A stretch of DNA of 64,000 nt from Bacillota bacterium (GTDB taxonomy: Bacteria > Bacillota > Clostridia > Acetivibrionales > JANLFN01), in contig JAUZPR010000001.1 in assembly GCA_030705825.1 (NCBI GenBank), forward strand, positions 17,772-81,771, written 5' to 3'. The stretch's first letter is position 1; every line of letters begins with the position of its first letter. The translations under genes and the position numbers were made by a program. The notes under the pieces are model-generated. The model was not told where the DNA came from and searched no databases. It worked only from the letters and a program-made list of their open reading frames with translations. Shown piece by piece: positions 5,396 to 48,159 of the stretch.

Positions 5396-6529
5396 ATGAA
5401 GATAAGCACGAGATTGGTCCATGGTCATAAGGGGGTTGACAAGGAAACCGGAGCCGTAAGTTTTCCTATATATCAGAGTGCCACATTCAGGCATCCCGGA
5501 CTTAACCAGACTACCGGCTATGATTATTCCAGACTCCAAAATCCGACCAGAGAAGAACTTGAAAATACCATTGCAAGCCTTGAAAACGGGACTACAGGAT
5601 TTGCATTTTCCAGTGGAATGGCAGCCATATCCACAGCTTTGTCTCTTTTTGTACCGGGAGACCATATAATAGTGTCCGACGATTTATATGGAGGTACCTA
5701 TAGATTATTTGAGGAAATGTATAAAAAATACGGTATTGAATTTTCTTATTTGGATACAAGCAATATAGATAATGTTAAAACTGCTGTTAAAAAGAATACA
5801 AAAGCACTTTTTATAGAAACCCCTTCAAATCCTATAATGAAGGTTACAGATATAGCTGCGGCGGCTGAGTTGGCTAGAAGTTCGGGAATACTTACAATTG
5901 TGGACAATACATTTTTGACCCCTTATTATCAAAGACCCATTGAACTGGGAGCAGATATAGTACTGCACAGCGGTACCAAATACCTTGGGGGCCATAATGA
6001 TACCCTGGCCGGGTTAATAGTAGTAAAAAATGAAGAGCTTGCCGCCAGGATAAAGTTGATACAAAAAACAGAGGGGGCTATGCTTGCTCCGTTTGATAGC
6101 TGGCTTATACTGCGCGGTATAAAAACTCTTTCAGTACGGATGGACCGTCAGCAGAAAAATGCCGCAGAGGTTGCAAATTGGCTTAGAAGTAATAATAATG
6201 TGGAAAGGGTCTACTATATCGGTCTTGAAGATCATGAAGGCTATGAAATTTCAAAAAGGCAAGCATCAGGTTTTGGCGCTATGATATCATTTTCTGTGAA
6301 GGATGCTTCATTGGTAGAAAAAGTGCTGGAACGCATCAGGTTGGTTTTATTTGCCGAGAGCCTAGGAGGGGTGGAAAGTCTTATAACCTATCCTATGGTA
6401 CAGACGCATTCTGCCATACCTGCTGAAATGAGAGAAAGGCTTGGAGTTGATGAGAAGCTCCTAAGACTTTCAGTGGGTATAGAAGCAGCTGAAGATATTA
6501 TAGCTGATCTTGAGCAGGCTTTGGAATGA
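5396..6529 (+). CDS. Cys/Met-metabolism PLP-dependent enzyme (cystathionine beta-lyase / gamma-synthase family)
   Basis: YSRLQNPTR, FSSGMAAI, and the HSGTKYLGGH PLP-lysine motif. I placed the start at ATG 5396 (SD AAGGAAG) rather than the track TTG 5366. Confidence 0.85.
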   Translation: MKISTRLVHGHKGVDKETGAVSFPIYQSATFRHPGLNQTTGYDYSRLQNPTREELENTIASLENGTTGFAFSSGMAAISTALSLFVPGDHIIVSDDLYGGTYRLFEEMYKKYGIEFSYLDTSNIDNVKTAVKKNTKALFIETPSNPIMKVTDIAAAAELARSSGILTIVDNTFLTPYYQRPIELGADIVLHSGTKYLGGHNDTLAGLIVVKNEELAARIKLIQKTEGAMLAPFDSWLILRGIKTLSVRMDRQQKNAAEVANWLRSNNNVERVYYIGLEDHEGYEISKRQASGFGAMISFSVKDASLVEKVLERIRLVLFAESLGGVESLITYPMVQTHSAIPAEMRERLGVDEKLLRLSVGIEAAEDIIADLEQALE

Positions 6530-6571
6530 GTAGATTATAACAAAAAGATTTAATATTGGGGTGATTTTGAA

Positions 6572-7705
6572 ATGAAATTCGGGACCAAACTTATTCATAA
6601 CGGAAATGAAATCGATAAGACCACCGGGGCTTTAAGTATACCGGTGTATCAGGTATCTACCTATCATCAGGAGGATATTGACAAGGGACAGGAATTTGAT
6701 TATTCCAGATCCGGCAATCCTACAAGAAAAGCTCTTGAAGATACCATAGCAAAGCTGGAAGGAGGAGACAGGGGCTTCGCATTTTCATCGGGCATGGCTG
6801 CAACCTCCTCGGTTCTGTCAACTTTTTCTTCGGGAGATCACATAATAGTATGTGAAGACGTATATGGCGGCACCTATAGGATAACTACAAACTTTTTCAA
6901 CAGGTTTAAACTTGATATAACTTTTGTTGATGCTTCAGATATAAATGCGATTAAAGGAAGTATAAGAAACAATACTAAAGCACTATTTCTGGAAACTCCA
7001 TCCAATCCTTTAATGAAAATTATAGATTTGAAAAGTGCAGTTGAAATTGCTAAACAGCATGGAATACTAGTAATTGTTGATAATACTTTCATGTCGCCTT
7101 ATCTTCAAAGACCGTTGGAGTTGGGAGCTGATATAGTAGTTCATAGTGCAACCAAATTCATAGGAGGCCACAGCGATGTAATAGGCGGCCTTGCTGCAGT
7201 AAAAGGTGCTGAACTGGCTAAAAGAGTCTATTTTGTTCAGAATGGCTTTGGTGCTGTACTTGGACCTCAGGATTCCTGGCTGTTACTCAGGGGACTCAAA
7301 ACCTTGAAGGTAAGGATGGACTACCAGCAAAATAACGCAAACAGGCTGGCACAATGGCTTAAGACAAATAAGCATGTTAAAAAGGTTTATTATCCGGGGC
7401 TTGAGGAGCACCCTGGACGCAATATTCATATGTCCCAGGCTGACGGCGCCGGGGCGGTTTTATCCTTTGAGACTGTTGATACCGAAATGGCAAAACGTTT
7501 CATGAAGAATGTAAAAATGGCGGCAGTTGCAGTAAGCTTGGGAGGTGTCGAAACTATAGCCTCTTACCCGGTAAAGATGTCCCACGCTTCAATACCCAAG
7601 CCTGAAAGGGAAAGGCTGGGGATTTCGGACAGTCTTATACGTATTTCGGTTGGACTTGAAGAAATAGACGATTTGATTGAGGATTTTGAGAGAGCATTGA
7701 GCTGA
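6572..7705 (+). CDS. Second Cys/Met-metabolism PLP-dependent enzyme (cystathionine gamma-synthase/lyase family paralog)
   Basis: YSRSGNPTR, FSSGMAAT, and the HSATKFIGGH PLP-lysine motif. It is collinear with the preceding paralog. Confidence 0.85.
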   Translation: MKFGTKLIHNGNEIDKTTGALSIPVYQVSTYHQEDIDKGQEFDYSRSGNPTRKALEDTIAKLEGGDRGFAFSSGMAATSSVLSTFSSGDHIIVCEDVYGGTYRITTNFFNRFKLDITFVDASDINAIKGSIRNNTKALFLETPSNPLMKIIDLKSAVEIAKQHGILVIVDNTFMSPYLQRPLELGADIVVHSATKFIGGHSDVIGGLAAVKGAELAKRVYFVQNGFGAVLGPQDSWLLLRGLKTLKVRMDYQQNNANRLAQWLKTNKHVKKVYYPGLEEHPGRNIHMSQADGAGAVLSFETVDTEMAKRFMKNVKMAAVAVSLGGVETIASYPVKMSHASIPKPERERLGISDSLIRISVGLEEIDDLIEDFERALS

Positions 7706-37708: not shown

Positions 37709-38323
37709 ATGTTTAAACAGCAGTGGAAACCTTCAACCCTGTTAAATCCGGTTCCGGTTGTGATGGTTACATGCTCGGATAAAGACGGGAAGTCTAACAT
37801 TATAACTCTTGCCTGGGCAGGCACGGTTAACTCGGAGCCGCCAATGGTATCAATTTCCGTAAGAAAGGAACGCTATTCCCACCAATTGATCAAGGACAGG
37901 GGGGAATTTGTTATTAACCTTACAACACGTAAACTGGCTCGTGCTACTGACCTTTGTGGAGTCAAATCCGGCAGGGATACTGATAAATTTGAATTGACAA
38001 AACTTACTAAGGAAAAGGCGTCAAAGGTAGATGTACCTCTTATAAAGGAGAGCCCTGTCAATCTGGAATGTGTTGTGAGGCAGATAATAGAACTGGGATC
38101 TCACGATATGTTTATTGCAGAAATTACAGCTGTTGATGTAGATGAAACCCTTATCGATGAAAAGGGTCGGCTTGATTTAGGAAAGGCAGATCTGATTGCT
38201 TATTCCCATGGTGAATACTGGAGCCTTGAAAAGCCTTTGGGTTATTTCGGTTATTCGGTAGCCAAAAGAAAAAGCATTAGAAAAACAGGAAATATAAGGA
38301 AGAAGAAGGATTTAAGAAAGTAA
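37709..38323 (+). CDS. Flavin reductase-like (FMN-binding split-barrel) protein with a Lys/Arg-rich C-terminal tail
   Basis: PVPVVMVTCSDKDGKSNIITLAWAGTVNSEPPMVSISVR is a flavin_reduct-type pattern. The tail is KRKSIRKTGNIRKKKDLRK. Confidence 0.7.
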   Translation: MFKQQWKPSTLLNPVPVVMVTCSDKDGKSNIITLAWAGTVNSEPPMVSISVRKERYSHQLIKDRGEFVINLTTRKLARATDLCGVKSGRDTDKFELTKLTKEKASKVDVPLIKESPVNLECVVRQIIELGSHDMFIAEITAVDVDETLIDEKGRLDLGKADLIAYSHGEYWSLEKPLGYFGYSVAKRKSIRKTGNIRKKKDLRK

Positions 38324-38497
38324 CGGCGAATAAATATAAGTTGGTGTATGTTTATAAGTTTGTTCTAAAAAAGGGGCATGAGCTCCTGATTTTGCTTTAA
38401 TGATCTTTGATATGCTGGAAATCTTTTATTATTAATTGCTTTAGTGGTTAATATAACAGGATTTCCTATATGAGTTCATATGGGAGGGGGATTATCC

Positions 38498-38869
38498 ATG
38501 TCTCTGCTGAATGATGTAAGAGAAAAGATATCCGATACTGCCAGGGCGGCTGTGAAAGCCTCCAGGGAGCTTGCAGAGATATCAAGACTAAATGCGGCTG
38601 TCAAATCGGAAGAGGAGAAAATTAAAACGCTTCTTCAGGATATAGGCCTGGCTGTATTTGAAACTTACAGAGACAATAAACCTGTAATGGTTGATTTGGA
38701 ACTGAAATGCAAAGAGATAATGGAATGCCGGCAAAACATTGTAGAACTCAAGGAGAGGATTCTGGACGTTAAAAATCTGGTTGCCTGTCCAAACTGTAAA
38801 GCGTCGGTCGAAAGGGTTTTCGTGTATTGTCCCGAATGCGGGACTCAGCTTGAAAGTTCGGAACAGTAG
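38498..38869 (+). CDS. Coiled-coil protein with a C-terminal zinc ribbon
   Basis: CPNC...17 aa...CPEC. ATG 38498 after GGAGGGGG. Confidence 0.55.
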   Translation: MSLLNDVREKISDTARAAVKASRELAEISRLNAAVKSEEEKIKTLLQDIGLAVFETYRDNKPVMVDLELKCKEIMECRQNIVELKERILDVKNLVACPNCKASVERVFVYCPECGTQLESSEQ

Positions 38870-38981: not shown

Positions 38982-40229
38982 TTATTTAGCTGCAAGTACC
39001 TTCTTTAGTTTTGTAAACCTTGGAAGTCCATTCTCCAACGGAACCTTTGATTCTCCCTGTATAAGGGGAAGAGCATAGTTGATGAAATTTTCATTAAGAC
39101 CGTTGCCTTCCTTATTGATCCATTCTCTGGGGATCTTCTTTTCAGTATTTGCAACATCAGTAAGATTGATAAGCTTTATGTTACATTTGTATTCAGGTCC
39201 ATCTGCTCTTTCAAAGGCTACCATGTAGTCTGTCTTACCTTCGACAGCATATCTTACCGCCATCTGGCCGGCATAGAATGCTTCATTGACATCGGTTGCA
39301 GAACCAACGTGCGCGGCACATCTCTGGAGAAGGCTGAACTCAATACCACGAACCTTGGCACCTGTATGCTGTTTTGCTATGTTTGCAAGAGTTGAAGCGA
39401 GACCGCCGAGCTGAGAATGTCCGAATGAATCCTTGTTCTGTGCGAGGTCTGAACCGTATTCGGAAATGTATTTGCCGTTCTTGTCCCTTATACCTTCGGA
39501 AACAGCTACTATACAGTGGCCATTCTTGCTGTATACATCTTTAACTTCTGATATAAACTTGTCCATATCAAAATCAATTTCAGGAAGATAAACAAGGTCA
39601 GGACCTGCGCCCATATGCTTTGCAAGTGCGGAAGAGGCGGTAAGCCAGCCTGCGTTTCTTCCCATTATTTCAAGAATTGTTACCATACCTTTATCATAAA
39701 CCCTTGCATCATGATAAACTTCCATAGTTGAAGTTGCTATATATTTTGCAGCACTTCCATAACCGGGACAGTGGTCGGTTCCCCAAAGGTCGTTATCAAT
39801 TGTTTTTGGAACGCCCATTACTCTGCACTCGTAACCGGATTTCTGCATATACTTGCTGATTTTGTTGCAGGTATCCATTGAGTCGTTTCCGCCGTTATAA
39901 AAGAAATACCTGATATTGTATTTTTTGAAAACTTCAAGAATTCTCTTATAATCGGTTTCATCATCTTCAGCACTCTTAAGCTTATAACGTACAGAACCAA
40001 GTGCGGACGAAGGAGTAGTCTTTAATAATTCGAGCTCATATGGATCTTCTTTGCTCATATCATAGAACTTTTCATCAAGAACTCCCTTAATTCCGTGTGC
40101 TGCACCATAAACTGCAGTTATGTTTCCCTGCTTTAGAGCTTCTGTAAATACTCCTGCGGCACTGGCATTGATAACCGATGTAGGACCGCCGGATTGTCCG
40201 AATATGCAGGCCCCTTTCAATTCACTCAT
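38982..40229 (-). CDS. pfp: 6-phosphofructokinase, probably PPi-dependent
   Basis: 415 aa. GGNDS (Asp where ATP-PFKs have Gly104) and PKTIDND (Lys where ATP-PFKs have Gly124) are the residues associated with PPi use. Confidence 0.85.
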   Translation of the reverse strand: MSELKGACIFGQSGGPTSVINASAAGVFTEALKQGNITAVYGAAHGIKGVLDEKFYDMSKEDPYELELLKTTPSSALGSVRYKLKSAEDDETDYKRILEVFKKYNIRYFFYNGGNDSMDTCNKISKYMQKSGYECRVMGVPKTIDNDLWGTDHCPGYGSAAKYIATSTMEVYHDARVYDKGMVTILEIMGRNAGWLTASSALAKHMGAGPDLVYLPEIDFDMDKFISEVKDVYSKNGHCIVAVSEGIRDKNGKYISEYGSDLAQNKDSFGHSQLGGLASTLANIAKQHTGAKVRGIEFSLLQRCAAHVGSATDVNEAFYAGQMAVRYAVEGKTDYMVAFERADGPEYKCNIKLINLTDVANTEKKIPREWINKEGNGLNENFINYALPLIQGESKVPLENGLPRFTKLKKVLAAK

Positions 40230-40439
40230 TATATTACCCTCCCATTTGTATAAATGTAATTGTATATGTAAACCTTACCTGTCTAACAGGTTATTTTAGC
40301 GGCATAAATGCGCGCTTAAAGACTACAGGGCATATATTGCCCAGTTCCTAATCAAATTAAAATATAACACAAACATATCCAAATTGCAATTCCGAGCTTG
40401 CTAAATTTTTATCAAAATATACAGGGGGAATATACATTT

Positions 40440-41426
40440 CTATAAAAGTTTTTTTAGACTTTCACAGGAATTTATGAGAAGTTCTCCGAGGCATACCGCA
40501 TCAGTATAGAGTGATTCGATTTGAGGATACTTTTTATATATTTCCTTTAAGTCCAGGCTTTCCAGCTTTTTTAATACGGATTCTGCATTCAATATATCAG
40601 ACAGACTTTGCTGCCTGATATTTCCGATCAGGAACTCAGGTGTAGAAAGAACATGACATGGATATACTGAACCATCCTGAAGTATATTGATATAACACCC
40701 GATGCCGCAGCTTCCACAGGTCTTAAGCATGTAACTTTCAGCATCCTTTTTCACATGGATAAAACCATAACGTTTTTCCCAGAACCTGAAAATAACAGAC
40801 TGCGCATATGTCCATGAGCACAGAAGGTCATTTCTGTTAAAACCGCGACCAACAGGTCTGAAGGGGGAAAAGTGGAATTGGTTGACATGCATGTTATCAA
40901 CGGCATATTCCATAAAGGCTTCCAGTTTACCAGAATTCTCTGATGTTAATGTGACTGATATGCCCGGTGAAATTCCTGCAAGGTTAAGCAGCCTGATTGC
41001 ACGTTCAGCTTTGCTAAAAACACCTTCGCCCCTTAGCCGGTCGTTTGTATAAGGGAGCCCGTCGACACTTATGCGTATCTCGTCGAAGTGCTTTGCAATC
41101 TGAAAAGCCTGGTTCTCGTCAATCAATGTACCGTTGGACATAAGGCACAGTCTTGTCCTACGTGAAGCGTCAATACTTCGGAAAGCAGCTGCTATAGGAT
41201 ATATGTCATCTCTTAACAGGGGCTCACCTCCGGTGAAGACAAGCTTTTCTGGAGAAAGAGCTGCAATGTCTTTAAAAAGCCCATTAAACTCCTCGAAAGA
41301 TAATTCGGTATTAACTGTATGATCGGCATCTGAATTATCACCGGCATTGAAGTAGCAGTATGAACACTTTAAATTACACTTTCTTGTCATATGTATATAT
41401 ATGTTTTTAATTTTATTTTCAACCAT
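40440..41426 (-). CDS. Radical SAM protein with a C-terminal SPASM/twitch-like Cys cluster
   Basis: CNLKCSYC (Cx3Cx2C), GGEPLL, and C-terminal CGSCGIGC...VYPCH. The start lies 2 nt after the HEAT-gene stop. Confidence 0.8.
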   Translation of the reverse strand: MVENKIKNIYIHMTRKCNLKCSYCYFNAGDNSDADHTVNTELSFEEFNGLFKDIAALSPEKLVFTGGEPLLRDDIYPIAAAFRSIDASRRTRLCLMSNGTLIDENQAFQIAKHFDEIRISVDGLPYTNDRLRGEGVFSKAERAIRLLNLAGISPGISVTLTSENSGKLEAFMEYAVDNMHVNQFHFSPFRPVGRGFNRNDLLCSWTYAQSVIFRFWEKRYGFIHVKKDAESYMLKTCGSCGIGCYINILQDGSVYPCHVLSTPEFLIGNIRQQSLSDILNAESVLKKLESLDLKEIYKKYPQIESLYTDAVCLGELLINSCESLKKLL

Positions 41427-41428
41427 AG

Positions 41429-43600
41429 TTAGGCCCTTATACGTTCCTGAATCATTTTAATTACCGATGAATACAACTGAGGCCATAGCCCTTGAAGAGG
41501 ATACATAATAGTTTTAGCCTCTGCTGACCCGATGCTTTCGCCTACCTGCACCAGCAGCCACTCAAAGTGGTTCAGATCTCCCATTGGTATCATTTTGTAT
41601 TTTGAAAGGTCGCTTACTAAAAGGCGCATAACTTCTGGTGTTTTAAAATCTTTTACCAGCTCGTCAAAGAACTTCCACTTCTCTCCTTCGGATTCTCTAA
41701 CCGAATTCATTGCTCCCTGCAGCAAACGACGGTACCTTCTTTCATTTTCATTATTCAATTCGTCCTGTATTTGCCGACTTAAATTGCCTTGCTGTGAAAT
41801 ATACCATTCCATTTTATATGGAGGATTACCCCTTGCTTGCAATTCACTAAGCGCAATATTTCTCTGCTCCTGGAAATTGACACTTTCAGACCATTCCCCT
41901 CCGCAACCGTTGCTCATATGAACAGAAACATCCTTTTTTTGAGCTACAATATGTAGTATATTACTTGTTACATTGGATTTTATATTGCATAAGCTTCTAA
42001 TGGCATCATTTGAAGGTTCAAGCGTTATATATCCTGGGTCATGGCTGTAGCCATGATATTTGTGATCATACGTAGAGGCTTTTATTGCCCAGTCTATAAT
42101 TTCTTCACTAAGAAGTGAATATCCTATGAATTCTTTCAGTTTTCCTCTTATATCTGAAGATGTATCAGCATGTGGTGCATAAAACATATTGCGAAGCAGA
42201 ATGTCGATCACAGTGGGCTCATGCATTTTACATAGAGCTGTCAGGGCATTAACATTCCCTCTTTGTTTCCATATATTCAATAGTTTGGGGGCAATCGGCC
42301 TGGCGGCAGAACCAATGCTTCCTATAGCCAAAATGGCATTTGAGACTACACCATTGTCATTATCATTAAGTGCTTTTTCCAGGGCAGGCATTGCTTCCAA
42401 AGCATTTTCGCCAAACTTCTCAAGTGTGAACGCGGCATTTCTTCGAACTATAGGAGAATCATATGCAAGCCTTTCTATAAGAGGTGGAATTACCGTTTTA
42501 CCTAGTGCAGCCAATGCAGCAGATGCATATTTGTATATATTTGAGTCGTTTTCGGACAGAGTCCCAAGAAGGTATAGTACGCCATCCAGATCTGCTCCTA
42601 TGCTGCTGATTGCCTTGACACATGCTATCTTTACTTTTGGATCGTTGTCAGACAACAGCCTGTAAAGAACGGGAAGAGCAGGAGCTGCTGTCCTGCCTAT
42701 AGTTTCCAACACTTCTGCGGTTACTGTTCTGACTGAGGAATTAGCGTGGGTTAAGCCGTTAAGCAGCAAATTTATATTGTTTTTGCTTATTTTACCAAGG
42801 GTTGATTCAACTTGAGCCAAGTTTTCATCAAAATGCTGCATATTGAATATGGAAGGGATTGACTCTGCTGCAAGCTCTCCCATTTTTCCAAGGAGTGTCA
42901 GTATCTTGTTCCTGATATCGCGGGAATTGTCAGAAAGGGCCGCTGCCAGATAAGGAACAGCTTCCTTGGATTTAATATCAATACTTTCCAAAACGGCTAT
43001 AATTTTGGTTTTAAGAGCAGTATCCTGGATTTTTAAAAGCTGTATCAGATATGGTACTGAAGTATTGCCCATTTTGATAAGAGTATCTTTTGCAGAGTTG
43101 GAAACATCATAGTTTTTACCTGTAAAAGCATTAATTAGCGACTGGATAACCTGGGGGATGTTGGCGTATGGGATACCTATACTACTCAAAAGATTAATTG
43201 CTGTTATACGCTGGGTGGTTGACATTTCCCGGGCTTTTTTAAGTTCTGCAAGAGATTCAATCATCATCCTTCCGTCCGGGGGAAGCTTTTTCAACCTCTT
43301 TTCCGCATTTTTCAGTCTTTCAGTGTTACTACTATTCAAATCATATAATAAATCGTTAATACCGCTCCTTAGTGAATAGTCAAGTTGATCTATATAATTT
43401 TGGGTTTCCTGCCATTCATTATCAACCTGAGTGCTGTTTATAATATCAATAAGTGTGGGAATAATAGTCTGACCGACGCCAAGCACCGTCTTAATTGAGG
43501 TATCACGTAGCTTATCATTTGCACTTCCCAGATTTCGCAGAGCTGTAATAATGGGGTCCTCCTTTTGTTGTGAGGCGGATGGTTTTCTGAATAGACCCAT
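41429..43600 (-). CDS. HEAT-repeat (PBS-lyase HEAT-like) protein with an unassigned ~240-aa C-terminal domain
   Basis: Repeated ~31-aa units such as DPKVKIACVKAISSIG, SPIVRRNAAFTLEKFG and DNGVVSNAILAIGSIG. SD GGGGGG. Confidence 0.65.
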   Translation of the reverse strand: MGLFRKPSASQQKEDPIITALRNLGSANDKLRDTSIKTVLGVGQTIIPTLIDIINSTQVDNEWQETQNYIDQLDYSLRSGINDLLYDLNSSNTERLKNAEKRLKKLPPDGRMMIESLAELKKAREMSTTQRITAINLLSSIGIPYANIPQVIQSLINAFTGKNYDVSNSAKDTLIKMGNTSVPYLIQLLKIQDTALKTKIIAVLESIDIKSKEAVPYLAAALSDNSRDIRNKILTLLGKMGELAAESIPSIFNMQHFDENLAQVESTLGKISKNNINLLLNGLTHANSSVRTVTAEVLETIGRTAAPALPVLYRLLSDNDPKVKIACVKAISSIGADLDGVLYLLGTLSENDSNIYKYASAALAALGKTVIPPLIERLAYDSPIVRRNAAFTLEKFGENALEAMPALEKALNDNDNGVVSNAILAIGSIGSAARPIAPKLLNIWKQRGNVNALTALCKMHEPTVIDILLRNMFYAPHADTSSDIRGKLKEFIGYSLLSEEIIDWAIKASTYDHKYHGYSHDPGYITLEPSNDAIRSLCNIKSNVTSNILHIVAQKKDVSVHMSNGCGGEWSESVNFQEQRNIALSELQARGNPPYKMEWYISQQGNLSRQIQDELNNENERRYRRLLQGAMNSVRESEGEKWKFFDELVKDFKTPEVMRLLVSDLSKYKMIPMGDLNHFEWLLVQVGESIGSAEAKTIMYPLQGLWPQLYSSVIKMIQERIRA

Positions 43601-43892: not shown

Positions 43893-43983
43893 ATGTGGTT
43901 AAAATTGAGTGTTAAAGGTTAAATTATAATAAATGCGTCTAGTATCGCCAAGAAAAACTATACCATAGAAGGAGTTGTTCAAT

Positions 43984-44913
43984 ATGCCGTTGGTTACGAC
44001 AAAAGAAATGTTTAAAAAGGCCTATGAAGGCGGGTATGCAATCGGTGCGTTCAACGTTAATAACATGGAAATCATACAGGGTATAACCGAAGCTGCCAAG
44101 GAAGAAAATGCACCATTGATACTTCAGGTATCATCAGGGGCAAGAAAGTATGCCAACCATACTTACCTTGTAAAATTGGTTGAAGCTGCAATTCAGGAAA
44201 CAAATCTTCCTATATGCCTCCATCTTGATCATGGTGACACATTTGAACTTTGTAAATCCTGTGTTGACGGAGGATTTACTTCAGTTATGATTGACGGATC
44301 ACATCATCCGTTTGAGGAAAATATCAAGCTGACAAAACAGGTTGTTGAATATGCACACGATAAGGGTGTAGTCGTTGAAGCTGAGCTTGGAAGACTTGCC
44401 GGCATAGAAGATGCTGTTAACGTTAACGACAAGGATGCAGCATTTACAAAGCCTGAAGAAGTTGAAGAATTTGTAAGCAAAACAGGTGTTGATTCACTTG
44501 CAATTGCAATCGGAACTAGCCATGGAGCATATAAATTCAAGGGTGAAGCCAGACTGAGATTTGATATTCTTGAGGAAGTCCAGAAAAAACTTCCCGGCTT
44601 CCCGATAGTACTTCACGGAGCATCATCGGTTATTCCGGAGTTTGTTGACATGATCAACCAGTTCGGCGGACAGATGCCAGGAGCAAAGGGTGTTCCTGAA
44701 GATATGCTGAGAAAAGCTGCTTCAATGGCAGTTTGCAAAATCAACATAGACTCTGACTTAAGGCTTGCAATGACTGGTACTATAAGAAAGTATTTTGCTG
44801 AAAATCCATCACACTTCGATCCAAGACAATACCTTGGACCAGCTAGAAATGCAATCAAGGGCCTGGTTAAGCATAAACTTGTTGACGTACTTGGCTGCAA
44901 CGGAAAAGCATAA
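43984..44913 (+). CDS. fba: Class II fructose-1,6-bisphosphate aldolase
   Basis: GAFNVNN, HLDHG and VLHGASS motifs. ATG 43984 after GAAGGAG. Confidence 0.9.
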   Translation: MPLVTTKEMFKKAYEGGYAIGAFNVNNMEIIQGITEAAKEENAPLILQVSSGARKYANHTYLVKLVEAAIQETNLPICLHLDHGDTFELCKSCVDGGFTSVMIDGSHHPFEENIKLTKQVVEYAHDKGVVVEAELGRLAGIEDAVNVNDKDAAFTKPEEVEEFVSKTGVDSLAIAIGTSHGAYKFKGEARLRFDILEEVQKKLPGFPIVLHGASSVIPEFVDMINQFGGQMPGAKGVPEDMLRKAASMAVCKINIDSDLRLAMTGTIRKYFAENPSHFDPRQYLGPARNAIKGLVKHKLVDVLGCNGKA

Positions 44914-44969: not shown

Positions 44970-45111
44970 AATAAAATAACAGAGTTAACATCAATAATCC
45001 TGGAGGGAAATACCCTCTAATCAAATCTAAAATCCTTTTATCCAATTGTAGATAATATCAAGTATAAAATAACCCTGCAAAGGTAAATAATAGTTCGTGG
45101 GGGTGTTTTAT

Positions 45112-46089
45112 GTGCCGGCAAAAGTAGGTATTCCAAGAAGTCTTTCATATTATCAGTTGTTTCCGCTCTGGAAAACCTTTTTTGAAGAAATGGGTGCAGA
45201 GCTTGTTGTTTCAGGCCCAACAACTAAAAAAATCCTTGATGACGGCGTGAAATGCTGCGTGGATGAAGCTTGTCTGCCTGTGAAGCTTTTTCATGGGCAT
45301 GTTGCAGATATTAAGGATAGGGTTGACTATTTGTTTATACCCAGGCTGACAAGCATCTCAAAGGGAGAGTATATATGTCCCAAATTCGGTGGCTTGCCCG
45401 ACATGGTAAGAACCTCACTGCATGGGCTTCCTGAAATAATAAGTACAGAAATCAACCTGAGAAAAAATAAAAGAAATTCATTAAAAGCTGCAATGGAAAT
45501 AGGCCATTATTTTACCGATAAGGATTCCCAAATAAAATCAGCCTATAAAAAAGCTGTGGGTTGCTACAACCTGGTAAAAGATAATTTTGAAAAAGGTTAT
45601 ATCCCGGATTTTATACGTCCGGGAAAAACAGCAGAAACCAAATCTTTAGAAAAAGATAGAAATTTAAATATTGCTCTGGTCGGACATACATATAATATTT
45701 ATGATAGTTTTGTAAATATGAATATATGGAGAAAACTTGAGAATAAAAATGCAAACATCATCACTATAGAAATGGTGGACGAAAAAGCAATAAATAGAAA
45801 TGCCAGGCAGCTTCCTAAAAAAATATTCTGGAATTACGGAAGAAAAGCTGTAGGCTCGGCTATGCATTTACTTAATGAGAAAAACCTTGATGGAGTTATT
45901 TACGTGATGTCATTTGGCTGCGGTATTGATTCATTTGTATGTGACCTGGTAGAAAGAAGAATCAGGAGAACTACAGACCTGCCTTTTATAGTTATCACTC
46001 TGGATGAGCATTCAGGAGAGGCCGGACTTGATACAAGACTTGAAGCTTTTATTGATATGGTAAGATGGAGGTGCACAGACAAAAAATGA
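45112..46089 (+). CDS. Acyl-CoA dehydratase activase-related protein (DUF2229-like)
   Basis: KVGIPRSLSYYQLFPLWKTFFEELG, CLPVKLFHGH and SFGCGIDS are typical of the 'CoA enzyme activase uncharacterised domain'. GTG 45112 after GGGGG. Confidence 0.6.
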   Translation: MPAKVGIPRSLSYYQLFPLWKTFFEEMGAELVVSGPTTKKILDDGVKCCVDEACLPVKLFHGHVADIKDRVDYLFIPRLTSISKGEYICPKFGGLPDMVRTSLHGLPEIISTEINLRKNKRNSLKAAMEIGHYFTDKDSQIKSAYKKAVGCYNLVKDNFEKGYIPDFIRPGKTAETKSLEKDRNLNIALVGHTYNIYDSFVNMNIWRKLENKNANIITIEMVDEKAINRNARQLPKKIFWNYGRKAVGSAMHLLNEKNLDGVIYVMSFGCGIDSFVCDLVERRIRRTTDLPFIVITLDEHSGEAGLDTRLEAFIDMVRWRCTDKK

Positions 46090-47183
46090 AGCTCACATTT
46101 CCACACCTGGGTAATGCGTATATAGCGGTTAAGGCTCTGTTGGATGAGCTTGGGGTTGATTATATAATACCGCCCTTCAATAATAAAAAAGCATTGGAGA
46201 TAGGAATAAAAAATTCACCTGAGTTTGCATGCCTTCCATTGAAAATTAATATCGGAAATATAATCCAGGCATACAGGGAAGGTGCTGACACTGTTTTAAT
46301 AACAGGAGGCTGCGGTCCATGCAGATTCGGCTACTATTGCGAAATGGAAAGAGAGATATTACAGGATGCGGGTTATGATATTGGATTCATAACCATTGAT
46401 GCACCGCGGGGAATAAGTTTAAAGGAATATTTTTCTCAGCTGCTCAAAATAACTAATGGAATAAATATTTACAAGATAGCGAAAGCAGTAAAAAACACAA
46501 CCGAAATAGCAATACTAGTGGACCAGCTTGAAAAGCTGACTTTCAAAATGCGTTCAATTGAAGCATGTAGAGGAGACACAGATAGCGTTTACAGGGATTT
46601 TCAGCAGGAGATACGTTTAATTAACGGTGCCCAAAGCATTAAAAAATATATTTCTCAAACCAGCCAAAAGCTTACCAATATAAGGTGCAATACCGGAATA
46701 AAACCGTTAAAGGTAGGCATTGTAGGTGAAATTTATACTACCATTGATTCCTATACGAGTTTTAACCTGGATGCCAGATTGGGTAACATGGGTGTTGAAG
46801 TAGACCGTTCGGTAACTGTCAGCAACTGGGTAGTGGAGCATATGCTGAAAAAGGTATTTCACCTTCCGCGGGACCTGAAATATGCCGAGGCTGCGAAGCC
46901 CTATCTTGGAGCAATGATAGGAGGCCACGCACAGGAGACCATAGGCAATTCGATAATGTATTCACAAAAAGGCTATGACGGAATAGTACAAATATATCCT
47001 TTGACATGCATGCCTGAAATAGTTGCTCAAAGCATACTGCCTGCTGTTGAAAATGATTACGGCATACCTGTATTGACTCTGATTATTGATGAAATGACAG
47101 GTGAAGCCGGTTATCTTACCAGATTGGAAGCATTTGTCGATTTATTGAATAAACGAAGGGAGATGGCGGCATCTGATAGGTAA
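46086..47183 (+). CDS. Second activase-related / 2-hydroxyacyl-CoA-dehydratase-D-like protein
   Basis: FPHLGNAYIAVKALLDELG, ACLPLKINIGN, GGCGPCRFGYY and YPLTCMPE. ATGA overlap with the upstream gene. Confidence 0.6.
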   Translation: MKLTFPHLGNAYIAVKALLDELGVDYIIPPFNNKKALEIGIKNSPEFACLPLKINIGNIIQAYREGADTVLITGGCGPCRFGYYCEMEREILQDAGYDIGFITIDAPRGISLKEYFSQLLKITNGINIYKIAKAVKNTTEIAILVDQLEKLTFKMRSIEACRGDTDSVYRDFQQEIRLINGAQSIKKYISQTSQKLTNIRCNTGIKPLKVGIVGEIYTTIDSYTSFNLDARLGNMGVEVDRSVTVSNWVVEHMLKKVFHLPRDLKYAEAAKPYLGAMIGGHAQETIGNSIMYSQKGYDGIVQIYPLTCMPEIVAQSILPAVENDYGIPVLTLIIDEMTGEAGYLTRLEAFVDLLNKRREMAASDR

Positions 47184-48159
47184 AACATATTATCTGGGCG
47201 TTGATGTTGGTTCGGTTAGTACAAACCTGGTTGTAATCGATGAAAATGATAATATAATTAAAAAATTATATTTGAGGACCGGCGGGCAGCCTATAGAAGC
47301 TTTACGAAAAGGTATGGAATATCTTGCCGGCCAGCTTGGAAATATTGAAATAAGAGGTGCCGGTACTACCGGCAGCGGAAGACAGCTGGCAAGCGTCATA
47401 ATTGGAGCCGACATCGTTAAAAATGAAATAACTGCCCATGCAGTGGCAGCGCAAAATTTGGTTCCCGAGGTAAAAACAATACTTGAAATAGGCGGACAGG
47501 ACTCTAAAATAATAATTTTAAAAAATGGAGTAGTTTATGATTTCGCCATGAATACCGTCTGCGCAGCAGGAACAGGTTCTTTCCTTGACAGGCAGGCCTC
47601 CAGGCTCAATATACCGATTGAAGAATTCGGCAGCTATGCTCTGCGTTCTGATTCTCCGGTAAGGATTGCAGGTAGATGTGCGGTATTTGCAGAATCCGAT
47701 ATGATACATAAACAGCAGATGGGGCACCGGGTTGATGATATAGTAAGGGGCTTGTGCCAGGCTCTGGTAAGAAATTATCTTAACAATCTTGCAAAAGGCA
47801 AGCTCATAGCCGAACCTATACTTTTCCAGGGTGGAGTAGCCGCTAATGTGGGCATTACAGCTGCCTTTGAAGAGGCACTGGGCAAAAAGGTAATAATACC
47901 TGAGTATTATGATGTTATGGGTGCATATGGAGCTGCACTTATAGCAAAAAGGAAAATGGAGAAGAGTATAGACACCAATTTTAAAGGTTTTGATGCCTGC
48001 CTGAGGGATTATTCAGCCAGGAGCAGGGAATGTTCAGGCTGCTCCAATGTATGTGAAGTTATTGAGTTGTTTTCAAATGACGAATTACTTGCAAGCTGGG
48101 GTGACAGATGCGGTAAATGGAGCAGCAGGCTGGAAGGGCGACCTTTGGTCGCCCGTTAA
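47173..48159 (+). CDS. BadF/BadG/BcrA/BcrD-type ATPase (CoA-substrate-specific enzyme activase); start codon non-canonical or unresolved
   Basis: YYLGVDVGSVSTN (phosphate-1), GTTGSGR, EIGGQDSK and a C-terminal CSGCSNVC. The conserved N-terminus lies upstream of the first ATG/GTG/TTG (47272). The frame is open from 47149. CTG 47173 lies 10 nt after GGGAG. Confidence 0.7.
   Translation: MIGKTYYLGVDVGSVSTNLVVIDENDNIIKKLYLRTGGQPIEALRKGMEYLAGQLGNIEIRGAGTTGSGRQLASVIIGADIVKNEITAHAVAAQNLVPEVKTILEIGGQDSKIIILKNGVVYDFAMNTVCAAGTGSFLDRQASRLNIPIEEFGSYALRSDSPVRIAGRCAVFAESDMIHKQQMGHRVDDIVRGLCQALVRNYLNNLAKGKLIAEPILFQGGVAANVGITAAFEEALGKKVIIPEYYDVMGAYGAALIAKRKMEKSIDTNFKGFDACLRDYSARSRECSGCSNVCEVIELFSNDELLASWGDRCGKWSSRLEGRPLVAR

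Follow-up and report, generated by a model that had tools for sequence, protein, structure and literature searches.

SPASM and twitch radical S-adenosylmethionine (SAM) enzymes have been mined almost wholly as makers of small modified peptides. To our knowledge, only a handful of full-size protein substrates are known for them, namely sulfatases, QhpC and a few cofactor precursors. QhpD is a radical-SAM enzyme which cross-links Cys to Asp or Glu inside the co-encoded protein QhpC, the two forming a stable enzyme-substrate complex (PMC7876137). The twitch domain of SkfB holds one auxiliary cluster, in CteB an open site of the auxiliary cluster takes up a Cys of the substrate, and in the sulfatase-maturating enzyme anSME a complete SPASM domain of seven Cys ligates two clusters fully (PMC6231123). 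Here we describe a pair of genes encoding a HEAT-repeat protein of 723 amino acids (aa) and a radical-SAM enzyme of 328 aa, found in a window of 64,000 nucleotides (nt) of contig JAUZPR010000001.1; all coordinates are positions in the whole window. Their NCBI names, given in a Bacillota metagenome-assembled genome (MAG), are generic ('HEAT repeat domain-containing protein', MDP4091784.1; 'radical SAM protein', MDP4091783.1). Comparison of related loci makes it somewhat probable that the pair is a maturase-substrate module complete in itself, in which the enzyme modifies, probably via a thioether, Cys566 on an alpha/beta domain in the C-terminal part of the HEAT protein. The first-pass annotation of this stretch knew of no described HEAT plus radical-SAM system of this form, and our literature search for HEAT paired with radical-SAM or SPASM proteins likewise found no paper describing one. 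Neither a curated family, nor a solved structure, nor a paper was found for the domain or the pairing.

In kind, and by analogy, the pair resembles the protein-directed maturases anSME-sulfatase and QhpD-QhpC. As with QhpD, the presumed substrate would be a protein from the same operon and not a short peptide, and the chemistry would be Cys-centred with acidic acceptors; QhpD has also been modelled on CteB, the top PDB relative of the window enzyme. QhpC, however, is ~110 aa long, mostly coil and in need of a 28-residue leader, whereas the partner of the window type is a folded HEAT protein of 545–1030 aa without a leader, the presumed site is a single Cys on a structured hairpin, and quinone-cofactor, protease or exporter genes are absent. 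No QhpD model was among the NCBIfam matches listed, and the likeness to QhpD is not drawn from a homology test. The likeness to anSME, the third-best PDB relative (1e-22), is that it modifies one Cys or Ser of a large folded protein without a recognition element for peptides that are made by the ribosome and modified after translation (RiPPs), the RRE. Its target C/S-x-P/A-x-R is, however, absent from the hairpin (GCGGEW and variants), and a sulfatase domain is missing from the window partner. The best sequence relatives, StsB, CteB (SCIFF), SkfB and PapB, share the radical-SAM core followed by a beta-hairpin CX11GX4C. The window enzyme differs from them in having neither RRE nor short precursor, in scoring far under their cut-offs, and in lacking the second cluster-binding motif present in StsB, CteB and PapB. 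On the HEAT side, CpcE/F, NblB and the HEAT_PBS family have the same type of repeat (HEAT_PBS, 41.6 bits) and act at a Cys of partner proteins, but these proteins do not have the alpha/beta C-terminal domain and the window organism is a non-photosynthetic Bacillota MAG. From anSME-sulfatase and QhpD-QhpC the pair appears to differ in its large solenoid scaffold substrate, in recognition through a folded domain without a leader, and in a single-auxiliary-cluster architecture.

The HEAT and radical-SAM genes are a conserved two-gene module and their pairing is not chance. The contigs of 10 radical-SAM homologues with 34–47% identity to the window enzyme were inspected. The first-pass annotation had reckoned with the pair not recurring as neighbours in other genomes; a gene for a solenoid-repeat protein adjoins the radical-SAM gene in all ten contexts, nine times with HEAT and once with ankyrin repeats. 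In the nine HEAT contexts the partner genes encode 440–1030 aa and lie on the same strand, directly adjacent. The partner is upstream in all contexts except L139, where it is located just downstream, and junctions in the related loci are either an overlap of 12–21 nt or a short gap. Beyond the pair, the flanks are unrelated (histidine kinases, amino-oxidase, globin, Cas1/Cas2 etc.), and a third conserved gene was not found beside it in any inspected context. The pairwise identities of the C-terminal domain are correlated with those of the enzyme (12 pairs, r=0.67, Mantel p=4e-4), the pattern expected of a long-lived module. A scan of GTDB genomes with the radical-SAM profile gave, among the matches listed, generic radical-SAM/SPASM proteins with ≤31% full-length identity, none of which had a HEAT partner. 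In the ankyrin context (P0100, 41% identity), a 688-aa protein with ankyrin repeats is encoded upstream and ends exactly at the radical-SAM start, which suggests that the solenoid scaffold, be it HEAT or ankyrin, is interchangeable. An AAA_28 (PF13521) gene is located ahead of the HEAT gene at two distant loci (L141 1–424, L142 1423–2019), and in L142 a Cys-type sulfatase with a CAPAR motif, fused to HEAT repeats, is encoded two genes downstream of the radical-SAM gene (5675–7498).

The part of the HEAT protein that the partners of the enzyme share is its alpha/beta domain (aa 482–600). In word-index searches the whole HEAT protein retrieved only itself and generic HEAT proteins, and a profile of the C-terminal domain three short proteins; an exhaustive domain-profile search was needed to see the family. 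Run on 1.84 billion cluster representatives, it found the domain in at least 474 protein clusters at E≤1e-3, 301 of them at E≤1e-10. The domain nearly always closes the protein, with a median of 3 residues after it, and the usual protein end is ...ELxRRGNPPYDPxAYL. Near-invariant residues are L537, C538, N547, L549, R580, A583, E586, L587, R590, G591, P593 and Y595. Modelled alone with AlphaFold2 (AF2), the domain reached a predicted local distance difference test (pLDDT) of 91.7. No Pfam match was returned even at E≤10, no NCBIfam match was obtained, and no PDB relative was found by Foldseek (best E=0.18) or by sequence-profile search; the domain is novel. An analogy with glycyl-radical enzymes, suggested by the conserved Arg-Gly close to the C-terminus and an activase-like partner, was considered and rejected, as Gly591 is not invariant (139/152) and the enzyme groups with SPASM/twitch proteins and not with pyruvate formate-lyase (PFL) activases. 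Two loci contain the domain nearly or entirely by itself: a 132-aa protein with the hairpin Cys (L089 3536–3934), whose contig ends 427 nt downstream, and a 122-aa domain open reading frame (ORF) without Cys and without enzyme, preceded by a 59-aa single-HEAT ORF (L140 239–805). The 1411-aa protein P0159 has two copies (465–577 and 1296–1411), either a tandem fusion or a merge in gene calling.

In both the domain-only and the full-length AF2 models, Cys566 is in the loop joining strands 558–562 and 570–574, at a beta-hairpin's tip. A metagenome scan with the domain under tight alignment gave 48 loci, of which 47 could be clustered. A radical-SAM gene of the family is adjacent in 12/47, and in the others no such gene occurs in the up to 5 kb flanking the domain gene at each side; in the loci lacking the enzyme no conserved alternative partner gene was found. 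When enzyme-linked and unlinked loci were compared column by column, the position of Cys566 was the only alignment column to discriminate between them: Cys was present in 17 and missing in none of the linked loci, and present in 4 (L089, L094, L105 and L106, shifted in the latter two) and missing in 31 of the unlinked ones. After collapsing the loci to 26 clusters at 65% identity, the enzyme was adjacent in 13 and absent in 1 of the clusters with Cys, and adjacent in 0 and absent in 12 of those without (Fisher p=2.7e-6, to be read with the reservation that the enzyme-linked sequences form about three clades and the clusters are thus not fully independent). One locus having neither Cys nor enzyme (L108) is nested within an enzyme-linked clade. 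Seen from the enzyme, a Cys is found in the corresponding hairpin of all nine readable partners adjoining radical-SAM homologues, among them distant ones (L088, L138, L139, L142) whose diverged C-termini are missed or barely detected by the narrow profile and read Cys, then ...QLARQELxRR[GDE]. Across the family, 85/152 representatives have the hairpin Cys in the fixed register D[IV]xVxxxx[GS]C. The co-variation with the enzyme makes Cys566 the likely modification site.

The enzyme belongs to the radical-SAM superfamily by its CX3CX2C motif and by Pfam (Radical_SAM PF04055, 76.9 bits, threshold 29.5), which also returns SPASM (35.1, threshold 21.5) and Fer4_12. Just 16 residues precede the motif, and alignments begin at position 91 of StsB and residue 92 of CteB, past their RRE. 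With CX3CX2C at residues 17–24 there is no room for such a domain, and the predicted enzyme is without an N-terminal peptide-recognition domain. Towards the C-terminus C240, C257 and C312 are invariant in the family, while C237 is found in 23/34. C240-X11-G252-X4-C257 is the first half of the SPASM signature, the full seven-Cys motif being CX9-15GX4C - gap - CX2CX5CX3C - gap - C (PMC6231123). The Pfam SPASM match covers residues 243–289 only, the CX2CX5CX3C block for the second cluster is absent from the enzyme, and only C312 is invariant downstream, so that the seven-Cys definition does not apply. As the second half of the motif is missing, the domain is better called twitch-like, a truncated SPASM, to judge from its Cys pattern. 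It would hold a single auxiliary cluster, possibly with an open iron site; the three invariant Cys are compatible with a site of the CteB kind. The CNLKCSYC and C-terminal CGSCGIGC...PCH motifs of the first-pass annotation are there, but its label 'SPASM' was overstated for half a motif. In one subfamily (L090, L092, L093, L104) the enzymes lack C237 and have an extra CX2C ~10 residues before the invariant last Cys (AQCxxCFKEL...C-LG); ligation of the auxiliary cluster may thus differ between subfamilies.

Among curated NCBIfam models the sactipeptide maturase StsB is the best match for 34/34 family members, with scores of no more than about 165 bits (cut-off 625) and none better than E=2e-48; NirJ, AhbD, MftC, PapB and anSME follow at lower scores. 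For the window enzyme the scores and cut-offs in bits are 155.3 vs 625 (StsB, NF045574), 69.6 vs 425 (SCIFF/CteB, TIGR03974), 80.2 vs 340 (PapB, NF047865), 73.2 vs 349 (anaerobic sulfatase maturase, TIGR03942), 121.8 vs 515 (NirJ, TIGR04051) and 99.6 vs 500 (AhbD, TIGR04545), the last two over core residues 12–218 only. The enzyme and its 33 relatives, all far below the cut-offs, therefore have no curated NCBIfam family, and the placement in a characterised family that the first-pass annotation had allowed for was not seen. Profile matches in the PDB are CteB (8e-31), SkfB (2e-27) and anSME (1e-22), the targets of all three being a Cys or Ser in a peptide or protein. A role in anti-phage defence was discarded, PADLOC yielding only generic viperin-core and HEAT matches.

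The scaffold is assigned to the HEAT repeats (PF13646, PF02985) by Pfam scores above threshold (HEAT_2 105.9 bits, threshold 27.7; HEAT 73.5, threshold 23.5; further HEAT_PBS 41.6 and HEAT_EZ) and by a modelled alpha-solenoid. The full-length AF2 model was built on 45 relatives and has a pLDDT of 94.4 and a predicted template modelling score (pTM) of 0.79. It contains 23 DSSP helices in aa 16–474, six of them long enough to count double, and is compatible with about 12–14 HEAT-like repeats, in line with the about 14 PBS-lyase-type repeats counted by the first-pass annotation. Foldseek matched the solenoid to importin-beta and PP2A-A (both at E about 1e-8), CAND1 and designed alphaRep. The remaining ~240 aa, annotated earlier as one unassigned domain, are indeed without a family match but consist of two units, the alpha/beta domain and a helical extension (aa 605–722), for which Pfam gave no match. 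In an alignment of partners from six loci the alpha/beta domain is common to all and the extension is confined to the window protein and the relative closest to it. This extension of ~117 aa is lineage-specific, being found in 19/151 relatives and absent from enzyme-linked partners such as those of L003 and L087. A His/Trp/Cys-rich stretch, HKYHGYSHDPGY, had been noted as conserved-looking; it belongs to one subfamily only, its positions being poorly kept across 152 relatives. The SNGCGGEW stretch noted with it (about 41890–41915) does contain Cys566, but the His/Trp-rich part is not a family feature.

Based on the superfamily, the enzyme would bind a [4Fe-4S] cluster via C17, C21 and C24 and cleave SAM to give a 5'-deoxyadenosyl radical. 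As there is neither a leader-recognition domain nor a short precursor gene, we infer that it docks directly on the folded alpha/beta domain of the HEAT protein, where it would act on the exposed hairpin loop bearing Cys566. By analogy with CteB, SkfB, StsB and QhpD we favour an intramolecular thioether at the hairpin as the most likely chemistry: the Cys566 thiolate would bind at the iron left free in the single auxiliary cluster, whose Cys ligands are the three invariant ones, and then become linked to a carbon of a nearby residue, locking (stapling) the hairpin. Another cysteine-centred oxidation, e.g. conversion to formylglycine, would be the second choice. The HEAT protein presumably functions in binding or scaffolding. 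Since many lineages keep the HEAT-plus-domain protein without Cys and enzyme, the modification probably modulates, i.e. tunes or stabilises, a pre-existing function of this type and does not create one. Read most simply, the enzyme would be a maturase dedicated to its HEAT partner, which accounts for the conserved adjacency, the missing RRE and precursor gene, the Cys-directed relatives and the strict link between Cys and enzyme. The first-pass annotation had the enzyme modifying either the HEAT protein or a client held by it; the comparative data favour the former, as Cys566 co-varies with the enzyme.

Several points weigh against this reading, apart from the limited independence of the clusters. 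The modification is predicted from genomic comparison. Asp or Glu is found within C+1 to C+5 in 63/85 of the Cys-bearing relatives, acidic residues at C+2 to C+5 being common, but no acceptor residue is conserved, which leaves the thioether as a proposal by analogy only. Two Cys-bearing loci have no adjacent enzyme, L094 with 5 kb of downstream sequence and L089 with 427 nt only, and one homologue (P0100) is paired with an ankyrin-repeat protein, outside the nine partners read. Finally, a role of Cys566 in docking or cluster ligation, in place of being itself modified, would explain the co-variation equally well.

This last possibility is part of a wider alternative, in which the HEAT protein is an adaptor or scaffold that recruits or presents to the enzyme a third-party client encoded elsewhere, be it protein, peptide or small molecule, or stabilises or loads its Fe-S clusters, Cys566 serving to dock or to ligate the auxiliary cluster. 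HEAT solenoids are typical interaction scaffolds, as the Foldseek relatives importins, PP2A-A and CAND1 illustrate, and the HEAT-plus-domain family is widespread without the enzyme and hence has a function of its own. The auxiliary cluster has three invariant Cys only, in CteB a site of that kind is filled by a Cys of another chain, and docking fits the co-variation as well as modification does. Nevertheless, none of the contexts shows a third conserved gene beside the pair, linked and unlinked loci are distinguished solely by a single exposed loop residue and not by an interface-sized patch, and the closest characterised enzymes modify the Cys-bearing polypeptide that they bind. We regard an adaptor role, the main rival reading, as unlikely, though worth keeping in mind. 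A tetrapyrrole-related pair appears far less likely still. Here, a NirJ/AhbD-like enzyme would tailor a haem- or bilin-type cofactor, which a phycobilin-lyase-like HEAT protein would bind and perhaps attach at Cys566. NCBIfam does return NirJ (122 bits), AhbD (100 bits), AhbC and NirJ1/2 for the enzyme and CpeY, CpcE/F and NblB for the HEAT protein, and in L001 a gene of the URO-D family is located 5 kb upstream. However, all of these matches are far below cut-off (122 vs 515, 44 vs 600), those of the enzyme cover mainly the generic radical-SAM core at residues 12–207 and those of the HEAT protein generic repeats, with phycobilin-lyase cut-offs (CpcE/F, CpeY, NblB) widely missed at 44.4 vs 600, 34.2 vs 220, 28.2 vs 330 and 32.6 vs 300. 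StsB outranks NirJ in 34/34 members, and tetrapyrrole genes do not recur in other contexts.

The resemblance of the enzyme to sactipeptide and ranthipeptide maturases could also point to a conventional RiPP system with a missed short precursor, the HEAT protein serving in immunity or export or as an accessory factor. All that the intergenic regions offer are ORFs of 22–39 aa without ribosome-binding site, none of them conserved in related loci, which agrees with the first-pass annotation in that no short precursor ORF is present on either side. One of 26 aa, MYIPPVYFDKNLASSELQFGYVCVIF (40357–40437, minus strand), has one Cys and starts 2 nt after the radical-SAM stop, the same spacing as at the junction of the HEAT and radical-SAM genes. 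It was rejected as a precursor: it has no ribosome-binding site and, as no counterpart was found downstream of the enzyme in 16 related loci, it is treated as chance. None of the remaining small ORFs is conserved, the RRE used by RiPP maturases of this type is missing from the enzyme, and neither protease nor transporter genes are located beside the pair, all of which makes a RiPP system extremely improbable.

The features of the locus are collected in Table 1. The ORF list and the junction sequence bear out the two ORFs, their lengths and their spacing as first annotated. The HEAT gene comes first and the radical-SAM gene follows 2 nt downstream, both on the minus strand. This spacer implies co-transcription of the two genes and, probably, translational coupling.

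Table 1. Features of the HEAT/radical-SAM locus, in window coordinates.
Feature	Position	Strand	Evidence
HEAT-repeat protein gene, 723 aa	41429..43600	-	ORF; Pfam HEAT_2/HEAT/HEAT_PBS; AF2 pLDDT 94.4; NCBI MDP4091784.1
Alpha-solenoid of HEAT-like repeats, aa 16-474	42179..43555	-	DSSP helices of AF2 model; Foldseek
Alpha/beta C-terminal domain, aa 482-600	41801..42157	-	AF2 pLDDT 91.7; profile search; conservation table
Cys566 codon, proposed target residue	41903..41905	-	Translation; hairpin in AF2 models; linked/unlinked column comparison
Helical C-terminal extension, aa 605-722	41435..41788	-	AF2 helices; tail-length distribution; without Pfam match
Gene junction TAA-ct-ATG, 2-nt spacer	41426..41431	-	Sequence
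Radical-SAM enzyme gene, 328 aa	40440..41426	-	ORF; Pfam Radical_SAM and SPASM; PDB profile matches; NCBI MDP4091783.1
CX3CX2C motif CNLKCSYC (C17, C21, C24)	41355..41378	-	Translation; kept in 32/34 relatives
Auxiliary-cluster region CGSCGIGC...PCH...C	40491..40718	-	Translation; Cys-column counts
PFK-family phosphofructokinase (pfp)	38982..40229	-	Flank of pair
Class-II fructose-bisphosphate aldolase (fba)	43975..44913	+	Other flank of pair

The first-pass annotation had placed the pair between two core glycolytic genes, and the flanks were indeed identified as a PFK-family kinase and a class-II aldolase. This setting has no meaning, since the flanking genes differ in every related locus, and the pfp/fba neighbours are incidental. 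The base composition is unremarkable, the GC content of the pair being 0.39–0.42 vs 0.34–0.43 in the flanks, and there is accordingly no sign of a recent insertion in GC content.

Three genes from the pair, a Flavin_Reduct-family gene (37709–38323, plus strand) is 54% identical to the gene directly upstream of the HEAT gene in L001, the closest related locus (L001 5021–5602). This identity is higher than that of the radical-SAM (47%) and HEAT (38%) proteins in the same locus. The gene is absent from the remaining contexts and could represent either leftover synteny or the electron donor of the enzyme. Between it and pfp, a 129-aa protein (38480–38869, plus strand) has an N-terminal coiled coil and a C-terminal double zinc ribbon (PF12773). 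Just past fba, two DUF2229/HGD-D-like genes and a BcrAD_BadFG ATPase (45097–48159, plus strand) resemble a 2-hydroxyacyl-CoA-dehydratase-type system with its activase, and appear unrelated to the pair.

Taken as a whole, we tentatively propose, as an interpretation that may well hold but falls a little short of being probable, an undescribed radical-SAM system for the post-translational modification of a repeat protein that is large, folded and not an enzyme. Working without leader and RRE, a twitch-type enzyme would recognise a new alpha/beta domain and install a Cys-derived modification, for example a thioether within the protein, on one hairpin residue, in many anaerobic bacterial lineages and with a scaffold that can be swapped. 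If this is true, the module adds a widespread new case to the full-size protein substrates of SPASM/twitch enzymes, the substrate being a scaffold protein and not an enzyme or a toxin precursor, and for recognition a folded domain would take the place of a leader peptide. The prediction is made from sequence, yet it reaches the level of a residue, Cys566, on a 120-aa domain modelled with high confidence. It would provide a first function for a domain family without Pfam, NCBIfam or PDB entry, and insight into how twitch-type enzymes select protein substrates.

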